DNA of 64,000 nt, from assembly GCF_000026545.1 (NCBI RefSeq), contig NC_011601.1. One strand, written 5' to 3'. Shown here in pieces: positions 18,443-21,400 of this stretch (positions within the stretch are counted from its first letter, which is position 1; each line of letters begins with the position of its first letter). This stretch comes from Escherichia coli O127:H6 str. E2348/69. Lineage in GTDB: Bacteria > Pseudomonadota > Gammaproteobacteria > Enterobacterales > Enterobacteriaceae. The position numbers were made by a program.

Positions 18443-21400
18443 TGAATGACACCAGCTTCGAAAACTGCATTAAGTGCACCGTCTGCACCACCGCCTGCCC
18501 GGTGAGCCGGGTGAATCCGGGTTATCCGGGGCCAAAACAAGCCGGGCCGGATGGCGAGCGTCTGCGTTTAAAAGATGGCGCACTGTATGACGAGGCGCTG
18601 AAATATTGCATCAACTGCAAACGTTGTGAAGTCGCCTGCCCGTCCGATGTGAAGATTGGCGATATTATCCAGCGCGCGCGGGCGAAATATGACACCACAC
18701 GCCCGTCGCTGCGTAATTTTGTGTTGAGTCATACCGACCTGATGGGTAGCGTTTCCACGCCGTTCGCACCCATCGTCAACACCGCTACCTCGCTGAAACC
18801 GGTGCGGCAGTTGCTTGATGCGGCGTTAAAAATCGACCACCGTCGCACGCTACCGAAATACTCCTTCGGTACGTTCCGTCGCTGGTATCGCAGCGTGGCG
18901 GCTCAGCAAGCGCAGTATAAAGACCAGGTCGCTTTCTTTCACGGCTGCTTCGTTAACTACAACCATCCGCAGCTAGGCAAAGATTTAATTAAAGTGCTCA
19001 ACGCGATGGGTACCGGCGTACAACTGCTCAGCAAAGAAAAATGCTGCGGCGTACCGCTGATCGCCAACGGTTTTACCGATAAAGCACGCAAACAGGCAAT
19101 TACGAATGTAGAGTCGATCCGCGAAGCAGTGGGAGTAAAAGGCATTCCGGTGATTGCCACCTCCTCAACGTGTACATTTGCCCTGCGCGACGAATACCCG
19201 GAAGTGCTGAATGTCGACAACAAAGGCTTGCGCGATCATATCGAACTGGCGACCCGCTGGCTGTGGCGCAAGCTGGACGAAGGCAAAACGTTACCGCTGA
19301 AACCGCTGCCGCTGAAAGTGGTTTATCACACTCCGTGCCATATGGAAAAAATGGGCTGGACGCTCTACACCCTGGAGCTGTTGCGTAAAATCCCGGGGCT
19401 TGAGTTAACGGTGCTGGATTCCCAGTGCTGCGGTATTGCGGGAACTTACGGTTTCAAAAAAGAGAACTACCCCACTTCACAAGCCATCGGCGCACCACTG
19501 TTCCGCCAGATAGAAGAGAGCGGCGCAGATCTGGTGGTCACCGACTGCGAAACCTGCAAATGGCAGATTGAGATGTCCACAAGTCTTCGCTGCGAACATC
19601 CGATTACGCTGCTGGCACAGGCGCTGGCTTAAACTCCTTTCTGATGCCCGGTAAGCATGTTGTTACCGGGCATTTTTGCGTACACGATTCCGTGCCCAAT
19701 GTATGCGTTGCAACGCAGTGAAAATTCCTCTGAAAACGTCTCGCAAAGGCTGAAACTGGCAGATGTCAAAGGTCTGGGATAACCGTAATGTCGCGTCATC
19801 ATAAATATCAGGTGACGGACAACCATGACCGAATCAACAACCTCCTCCCCGCATGATGCGGTGTTTAAAACCTTTATGTTCACACCCGAAACCGCACGGG
19901 ATTTTCTGGAAATACATCTACCAGAGCCGCTGCGCAAGCTTTGCAACCTGCAAACCTTACGCCTGGAACCCACCAGTTTTATTGAAAAAAGTTTACGCGC
20001 TTACTACTCGGATGTTTTGTGGTCCGTGGAAACCAGCGAGGGTGACGGCTATATCTACTGCGTGATTGAACATCAAAGCTCTGCAGAAAAGAATATGGCT
20101 TTTCGGCTAATGCGCTATGCCACTGCCGCCATGCAGCGTCACCTGGATAAAGGCTATGACAGAGTTCCGCTGGTGGTGCCATTGCTGTTTTATCATGGCG
20201 AAGCCTCGCCCTACCCGTACTCACTCAACTGGCTGGATGAGTTTGACGATCCGCAACTTGCCCGGCAGTTGTACACCGAAGCTTTTCCGTTGGTGGATAT
20301 CACCATCGTACCTGACGATGAGATCATGCAACATCGACGTATAGCTCTGCTGGAACTGATTCAAAAGCATATTCGCGACCGCGATTTAATCGGTATGGTC
20401 GACAGGATCACCACGCTTTTGGTTAGAGGCTTCACTAATGACAGCCAGCTACAAACACTGTTTAATTATCTGCTGCAATGCGGCGATACCTCCCGTTTCA
20501 CCCGCTTTATTCAGGAGATTGCCGAACGTTCACCACTACAAAAGGAGATATTAATGACTATTGCTGAACGGCTACGGCAGGAAGGACATCAAATTGGCTG
20601 GCAGGAAGGTAAGATTGAAGGCTGGCAAGAAGGTAAATTAGAAGGTTTGCAGGAAGGCATGCATGAGCAAGCCATTAAAATTGCCTTGCGCATGCTGGAG
20701 CAGGGCTTTGAACGTGAGATTGTGCTGGCGGCAACCCAACTCACTGATGCTGATATTCCGAACTGTCATTAAAAGGAGAGATTGATGACTATTGCTGAAC
20801 GGCTACGGCAGGAAGGACATCAAATTGGCTGGCAGGAAGGTAAGATTGAAGGCTGGCAAGAAGGTAAATTAGAAGGTTTGCAGGAAAGCATGCATGAACA
20901 AGCCATTAAAATTGCTTTGCGCATGCTGGAGCAGGGCATTGATCGTGACCAGGTGCTCGCGGCCACTCAGCTAAGCGAAACCGATCTGGCAGCAAAAAAC
21001 CACTAATTAACACAGGCCCACAGCCGATCCCCATGGGCCTTTGATATCAATAACTACCTTTTACGCGTGGCCCATTTTTGCCTGATTTAAACATCGCCAG
21101 TCGTTGATCCAGGGCATCGCTGTAGAGCATCGTGTCAACGCCAACAGCGACAAAGTTCGCTCCCCACGCCAGGCATTGCTGCGCCATATCAGGAGCCACA
21201 GCCAGAAAACCAGCCGCTTTACCCGCAGCACGGATCCGCCGAATGCTGGTTTCAATAATTCGCTGCACTTCCGGGTGCCCGGCGTTATCCGGGTAGCCCA
21301 ACGACGCAGAAAGATCCGCAGGTCCAATAAACACGCCATCAATCCCTTCGACATCGAGGATTTCGTCCAGGTTATCCAGTGCCGTTTTACTTTCCACCTG

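Follow-up and report, generated by a model that had tools for sequence, protein, structure and literature searches.

The rpnE-ypaA locus of Escherichia coli E2348/69: a probable member of the RpnL/RpnS gene-within-gene family with a free-standing copy of the short protein

Why should a gene for a predicted nuclease contain a second, in-frame start site, and why should the sequence behind that start be repeated as a small gene of its own immediately downstream? This question is raised by the rpnE-ypaA locus in a stretch of 64,000 nucleotides from Escherichia coli O127:H6 str. E2348/69 (NC_011601.1; the whole stretch is called the window below). The initial annotation of the window proposed that the locus encodes a long toxin together with two copies of its inhibitory tail. 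By analogy with the members of the family that have been studied experimentally, we read the locus as a member of the RpnL/RpnS gene-within-gene family (Zhong 2023, PMC10400941) that carries an extra free-standing RpnS gene, and we put the probability of this reading, pairing and neutralization included, at about 0.65. The observation and its general interpretation are real but not new, being already-published biology in which the rpnE-ypaA locus of K-12 is included. What is added here is a modest population view: the intact catalytic residues and purifying selection on the nuclease domain, the conservation of the internal initiation signals, the range of repeat numbers in the tails, the match of six repeats with six in E2348/69, and the frequency of the single-copy form.

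The 315-amino-acid open reading frame (ORF) scores 712.6 bits with the NCBIfam equivalog model NF007418, well above the cut-off of 583 for RpnE orthologues, and 177 bits with the Rpn family model TIGR01784, whose cut-off is 52; rpnE is also the RefSeq name of this ORF in other strains, K-12 included. The names used in the initial annotation, yfaD and rpnB, are accordingly only half correct: yfaD is rpnE, whereas rpnB is yfcI (PMC5350276). E. coli E2348/69 is 100% identical to the window across the locus. On the plus strand glpC (ending at 19632) is followed by the 315-amino-acid ORF, the small ORF and a hairpin, and then by the convergent yfaU. The K-12 MG1655 locus likewise lies between glpC and yfaU, has both initiation modules, and agrees with that of E2348/69 at 237 of 243 residues of the nuclease domain.

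The internal Shine-Dalgarno (SD) sequence, AAAAGGAG, is followed after six nucleotides by an ATG (20554-20556) in the frame of the long ORF, (20554 - 19825)/3 being 243, which makes Met244 the start of the short product RpnE_S. The motif and the ATG had been recognized in the initial annotation, as had the repetition of the whole module 231 nucleotides downstream as ypaA, and both points stand; the internal isoform, given there as 73 amino acids, has 72 (73 codons with the stop), and it is YpaA that has 73. The second SD overlaps the TAA stop codon of rpnE (20770-20772) and lies six nucleotides before the ATG at 20785. Because of this overlap, and because a terminator scan found no hairpin between the two genes, they are presumably co-transcribed. 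A TTG at 20782 is improbable as the start of ypaA, since it lies only 3 nucleotides after the SD.

Exact matches to AAAAGGAG-N6-ATG occur three times in the window against 0.02 expected from shuffled sequences. Two of the three are the rpnE and ypaA sites, and these two are not independent because they belong to the copies of one 215-nucleotide duplication (direct copies at 20540-20754 and 20771-20985, 90% identical according to a repeat finder). Pairing with the 3' end of 16S rRNA is predicted at -8.7 kcal/mol for both starts, a value not exceeded by any of the 65 candidate starts examined across the locus and lying in the top 0.9% for the 2053 ATGs of the whole window. The annotated start of rpnE at 19825 has a weak SD (-3.8 kcal/mol), and for this reason RpnE_S is probably made in excess. 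The two strengths, -3.8 against -8.7, fit the published greater abundance of short products over the full-length protein.

Conservation of these signals was followed in 54 loci besides the window, namely those from 12 metagenome contigs, 17 complete genomes, K-12 and 24 exact-protein look-ups; the look-up loci were found through common YpaA variants, and the metagenome contigs, many of them short, through a 28-nucleotide anchor. Table 1 gives the counts for both SDs; the single locus in which the internal SD deviates has AAAAGGTG. The spacer between the internal SD and its ATG (20548-20553) reads ATATTA in the window, with Ile242, in place of the usual AGATTA or AGATTG, with Arg242. The only other sampled locus with this spacer, L040, has a nuclease domain identical to that of the window.

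Table 1. Coordinates of the rpnE-ypaA features in the window.
Feature	Position	Strand	Basis
rpnE (yfaD), complete ORF, RpnE_L, 315 aa	19825..20772	+	ORF list; NF007418
PD-(D/E)XK nuclease / Transposase_31 domain, residues 8-209	19846..20451	+	PF04754, E = 6.5e-88
Internal SD AAAAGGAG, codons Lys240-Glu241	20540..20547	+	pattern match; kept in 53/54 sampled loci
RpnE_S ORF, internal start Met244, 72 aa	20554..20772	+	in frame; NF007418 tail match
rpnE-tail array, six 12-nt (4-aa, GxxxG-type) repeats	20587..20658	+	Tandem Repeats Finder, period 24, 20596-20657; unit parse
Second SD AAAAGGAG	20771..20778	+	kept in 33/33 sampled two-copy loci
ypaA (rpnE_Ss), free-standing tail copy, 73 aa	20785..21006	+	ORF; 83% identity to RpnE_S
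ypaA array, six 12-nt repeats	20818..20889	+	Tandem Repeats Finder, 20827-20886; unit parse
GC-rich terminator-like hairpin between convergent ypaA and yfaU	21014..21040	.	terminator scan, minus strand

Initiation at such sites has been demonstrated experimentally in K-12. Ribo-RET peaks were found at in-frame internal starts of all five rpn genes, and the C-terminal product of RpnE was recognized as nearly identical to YpaA (Meydan 2019, 10.1101/520783). In MG1655, RpnE_S and YpaA are marked by Ribo-RET/Onc112 peaks and were detected by SPA-tag immunoblotting (PMC10400941; 10.1101/520783), and YpaA was renamed RpnE_Ss as a second copy of RpnE_S (Zhong 2023, PMC10400941). A literature search found no later paper devoted to RpnE or YpaA. 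The short RpnS proteins neutralize the toxic long RpnL proteins in the cases of RpnA, RpnB and the plasmid-encoded RpnP2, and in the case of RpnC in an SOS assay (PMC10400941). At the level of the family, then, the initial annotation had correctly described Rpn proteins as toxic nucleases that are restrained by a short product of an internal start and linked to phage defence. The principle of an antitoxin encoded as a gene within a gene is important, and it was established between 2019 and 2023 with this very K-12 locus among its examples.

The closest studied relative is RpnA_L/RpnA_S of K-12, which has the same domain layout, the same Met244 start and an SD on the same codons, Lys240-Glu241; the substitutions K240R/E241D/M244L abolish RpnA_S (PMC10400941). 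RpnA_S and RpnE_S share 12 of their first 13 residues. The crystal structure of RpnA_S has been solved (PMC10400941), and the entry 7TH0 (RpnA-S) is the best match of the RpnE tail in both sequence and fold. It is the sole match of this strain's tail in a PDB sequence search, with an alignment that splits exactly around a 24-residue repeat array, and it was the top and only credible match in a fold search with the predicted tail structure (probability 0.98, TM score 0.73 on the target). The AlphaFold model used for that search is of moderate confidence (pLDDT 72.6) and consists of one long helix, residues 3-50, that spans the array. When the PDB was searched by sequence with the tail of K-12 instead, designed pentatricopeptide repeat proteins ranked above 7TH0; these matches were rejected as spurious, being sums of many sub-threshold repeats each with E > 300. 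The two systems differ in that RpnA_S is without a repeat array, whereas RpnE_S of E2348/69 has the 24-residue insertion in helix 1, and in that toxicity of RpnA_L and inhibition by RpnA_S have been demonstrated, whereas the published overexpression tests of RpnE were negative.

The profile search of the tail suggested by the initial annotation gave the expected matches. With NF007418 the RpnE tail and YpaA each align over its C-terminal 65 positions (244-308) at E about 1e-32 (5.8e-33 for the tail), and each also matches TIGR01784 (E = 2e-7 for the tail), and in the precomputed Pfam annotations both carry PF27070, HTH_Rpn_C. A search against a Pfam release without PF27070 left the RpnE tail unrecognized, and DUF4351 (PF14261) matched neither full-length RpnE nor YpaA at E <= 10. 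The two short proteins are 83% identical: their codons 1-34 are identical in nucleotide sequence, whereas over the last 21 codons they differ at 17.

Partner choice presumably depends on the repeat array. The number of 4-amino-acid repeats in helix 1 determines the specificity of RpnS. In the case of RpnC, an extra repeat in RpnC_S alone or in RpnC_LS alone abolishes neutralization, and an extra repeat in both restores it (PMC10400941). In E2348/69 the tail of rpnE and ypaA each have six repeats (proteins of 72 and 73 amino acids; the two arrays differ at a single nucleotide), while K-12 has two in the rpnE tail and three in ypaA (56 and 61 amino acids), so that the E2348/69 arrays are longer by 48 and 36 nucleotides, respectively. 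The specificity rule thus becomes directly testable by comparing E2348/69, where the pair is matched, with K-12, where it is mismatched. Glycine stands at every fourth residue from G11 to G35, which gives a (GxxxG)n helix, and this recurrence accounts for weak profile matches to FliH (NF004266, E about 4e-6) and Yae1_N (PF09811) that lie far under the family cut-offs. The repeats are not described as (GxxxG)n in the main text of PMC10400941.

The locus might therefore work as follows. By homology, RpnE_L would consist of a PD-(D/E)XK nuclease domain and a C-terminal helical HTH_Rpn_C domain; RpnE_S would be the C-terminal domain alone, made from the SD and ATG at Met244, and YpaA a near-copy made from the second module. 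Translation of both short proteins has been demonstrated in K-12 and would be expected in E2348/69 from the identical signals. On the model of RpnA, RpnB and RpnC, RpnE_S and YpaA would use their long first helix to pair with its identical counterpart in RpnE_L and render the nuclease inactive, and the repeat count of helix 1 would decide which partners fit. As both arrays of E2348/69 hold six identical units, YpaA of this strain should pair with RpnE_L and could be a second inhibitor of it; in most strains it probably is not. This expectation for individual strains rests on the RpnC repeat experiment together with the survey described next.

Among the linked loci sampled, the array of the rpnE tail has 2-10 units and that of ypaA 2-8, and clusters of free-standing YpaA-type proteins reach 10 units. 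In 91 of 91 protein clusters the array spans a whole number of 4-amino-acid units, and its length changes in steps of 12 nucleotides. Thirteen distinct combinations of rpnE-tail and ypaA repeat numbers were found among 31 linked pairs, and 12 of the 13 are mismatched, K-12 being (2,3). The sole matched combination, (6,6), is the E2348/69-type allele, and it has to be counted as one lineage because the look-up with this strain's own YpaA supplied seven of the eight loci that show it. The repeat numbers of the first 15 linked pairs gave a Spearman coefficient of 0.57 (p = 0.03), from which no conclusion is drawn, the sample being neither random nor phylogenetically corrected. In 60 evenly spaced genome records the two-gene form was found in 35 (about 58%), and a single rpnE with a ypaA-type C-terminus in the other 25 (about 40%); these fused loci differ in their crossover point, which suggests that fusion occurred repeatedly and independently. 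In five of the sampled loci (L036-L038, L048 and L049) a deletion of 1 nucleotide, of 13 nucleotides or of a larger stretch disrupts the nuclease domain of rpnE, while the small ORF and its SD are intact; here the toxin part has decayed and the short protein has been retained. In Escherichia marmotae and relatives (P0101, P0107, P0109 and P0115), a frameshift in the YpaA homologues replaces the last helices with a different C-terminus (…DRDLAARSHPAKRSRSGSE). In one metagenomic locus (L007, SKEH01015850.1, 438-614), an rpnE with a 10-repeat tail is followed not by ypaA but by a distinct RpnS-like ORF of 57 amino acids (MTIAERLQEVGRRKGKREGQHAEALRIAQRMLDDGIARETVVKITGLTADEIAALAH). A megablast search of 5426 complete E. 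coli genomes found no counterpart of this ORF, which would be either a genuine heterologous cassette or the product of chimeric assembly.

Several points weigh against the reading of the locus as a toxin with two inhibitors. Alone among the K-12 paralogues, RpnE caused neither toxicity nor SOS induction nor stimulation of recombination when overexpressed (PMC5350276), and the K-12 record describes it as an 'inactive' nuclease-like protein. Constructs lacking the internal start have been published for RpnA, RpnB and RpnP2 only, and protection against phage for plasmid-borne RpnP2 alone (PMC10400941). In 5420 of 5426 E. coli genomes the locus stands at one and the same place in the core genome, flanked by the metabolic genes glpC and yfaU, and it lies in no defence island; PADLOC v2.0.0, the library of which is older than the Rpn paper, returned only a weak unrelated match ('putative invertase', E = 2e-4). 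A scan of 19600-21200 with the sigma-70 consensus found no internal promoter site, and the start sites within all rpn genes that are cited from dRNA-seq (PMC10400941) stand beside this result. Finally, ypaA and the rpnE tail disagree in repeat number in most strains, and ypaA is for this reason probably not a redundant inhibitor in general. The two copies of an inhibitory tail postulated in the initial annotation would at best be found in E2348/69 with its (6,6) pair, and, given that a mismatch of one repeat abolishes neutralization of RpnC, not in the species at large. A reduction of synonymous variation near the internal start was not seen in our within-species sample (6 of 32 against 46 of 223 variable third positions, p = 1); this null result carries no weight for or against the published cross-species signal.

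It might then be supposed that RpnE_L is inactive or a very weak nuclease and that RpnE_S and YpaA serve otherwise, for instance as DNA-binding regulators or as modulators of Rpn paralogues. The negative outcome of all three overexpression assays, the 'inactive' label in K-12 and the core-genome position agree with this supposition, as do the detection of native RpnE_L in growing cells, which evidently tolerate it, and the relatedness of RpnS to helix-turn-helix motifs according to HHpred (PMC10400941), to which a weak HTH_7 profile match of YpaA may be added. The assays, however, were carried out with constructs that retained the internal start in hosts that retained the chromosomal rpnE-ypaA (PMC5350276), and co-expression of RpnE_S in them is a caveat raised by the authors of PMC10400941 themselves. 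The residues D11, D63, E82, Q84, R94 and D165, whose mutation altered the activity of RpnA (PMC5350276), are all present in RpnE and invariant across 24 sampled loci, and the ratio of nonsynonymous to synonymous polymorphism (pN/pS) pooled over the 24 nuclease domains (18 alleles) is 0.071 with zero stop codons, indicating purifying selection. Invariant catalytic residues and strong purifying selection are not expected of a dead enzyme, and in published tests RpnS acted specifically by paralogue, which also counts against the supposition. On this indirect evidence we consider an inactive RpnE unlikely, and suppose that RpnE_L would be toxic.

As for ypaA, it figures in the RefSeq (PGAP) annotation of E2348/69, and in that of many further strains, as a pseudogene fragment marked 'incomplete; missing N-terminus' (20773-21006 in the window; 1817-2002 in L001), and the K-12 record also annotates it as a pseudogene. 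The label is an artefact that arises because ypaA is homologous to the C-terminus of a longer protein. That ypaA is a decaying, functionless remnant of a tandem duplication would agree with these labels, with its absence from about 40% of strains and with the C-terminal frameshift in the E. marmotae variants; yet an unbroken ypaA ORF with its SD is retained by all 33 sampled two-copy loci, the length varies solely by steps of 12 nucleotides, and tagged YpaA was detected in MG1655 (PMC10400941), which contradicts the idea and makes it hardly credible. A different proposal is that ypaA is mainly a recombination partner, or cassette, for the rpnE tail and not a second inhibitor, so that the matched state of E2348/69 would be a by-product of a recent gene conversion. 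The predominance of mismatched combinations, the commonness of single-copy fused loci with their differing crossover points, and the published remark that downstream rpnSs genes can vanish through deletion or fusion (PMC10400941) all suit such a partner. So does the origin of the matched pair. The nearest relatives by nuclease domain differ from E2348/69 at 3 of 729 nucleotides and are identical after the array, and their rpnE arrays comprise 10, 10, 10 and 3 units with the synonymous markers CAA/AAA; the rpnE array of E2348/69, unlike these, has the ypaA-type markers CAG/AAG and agrees at every nucleotide with the ypaA array of the same relatives. Over their first 57 nucleotides the two copies show 1-5 differences in all other two-copy loci (21 in L007 with its heterologous ORF) against none in E2348/69-type loci, with 1 in a single locus. 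A short gene-conversion tract from ypaA to rpnE is the most economical explanation of the matched pair; it is likely and not proven because there are only two markers, both synonymous, and AAG is also found in L014, an E-type allele in another context. On the other hand, a silent donor would need neither the strong SD and uniformly intact ORF of ypaA nor its expression in K-12 (PMC10400941), and the roles of donor and inhibitor are compatible; a mainly recombinational function appears distinctly improbable.

A combined role is somewhat less doubtful, though still tentative: ypaA might be an expressed cassette that, by conversion or unequal crossing-over, resets the repeat number and C-terminal type of RpnE and hence its partner specificity. 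If this were true, the free-standing ypaA would break the 'obligatory co-evolution' of the toxin with its nested antitoxin, E2348/69 would represent a lineage in which a ypaA-to-rpnE conversion had only just created a matched pair, and a mismatched YpaA could provide immunity to incoming RpnE variants.

The same locus may be compared with other systems. A free-standing RpnS gene is found independently in some E. coli strains, where rpnC_Ss lies downstream of rpnC, a different paralogue at a different locus (PMC10400941). Classical type II toxin-antitoxin pairs are similar in that a toxic enzyme is bound and blocked by the product of a neighbouring gene, a small protein of helical or HTH-like type, and the position of ypaA beside rpnE resembles this arrangement. 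Unlike in those pairs, the primary Rpn antitoxin is nested in frame and is the C-terminal domain of the toxin itself, and inhibition would operate through a shared dimerization helix without a separate antitoxin fold. Glycine at each fourth residue of a long pairing helix is also a feature of the GxxxG helices of FliH/YscL and of the deca-GX3 motif of Yae1/Lto1; the likeness of the Rpn repeats to these is a compositional and structural analogy only and implies no homology.

The RefSeq label of rpnE, 'ISNCY family transposase', is as misleading as the pseudogene label of ypaA, both clashing with the published expression and with the lack of insertion-sequence (IS) features. Identity as an insertion-sequence transposase was rejected: no flanking inverted repeats surround the locus, which has only short internal ones, the search of E. 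coli genomes turned up no copies on plasmids, and the chromosomal position is constant in the same 5420 of 5426 genomes. Rpn proteins in general have been argued not to be transposases (PMC10400941). An Rfam search of 19000-21500 found no RNA family.

On the minus strand, ORFs of 51 (20589-20744) and 48 amino acids (20820-20966) cross the two arrays as mirror images of each other; the repeats and the duplication most likely account for both. The third AAAAGGAG-N6-ATG match (45708-45838, plus strand) precedes an ORF of 39 amino acids (45719-45838) upstream of one of 323 amino acids (45887-46858), and the shorter of the two might represent a small upstream ORF or one of leader type.

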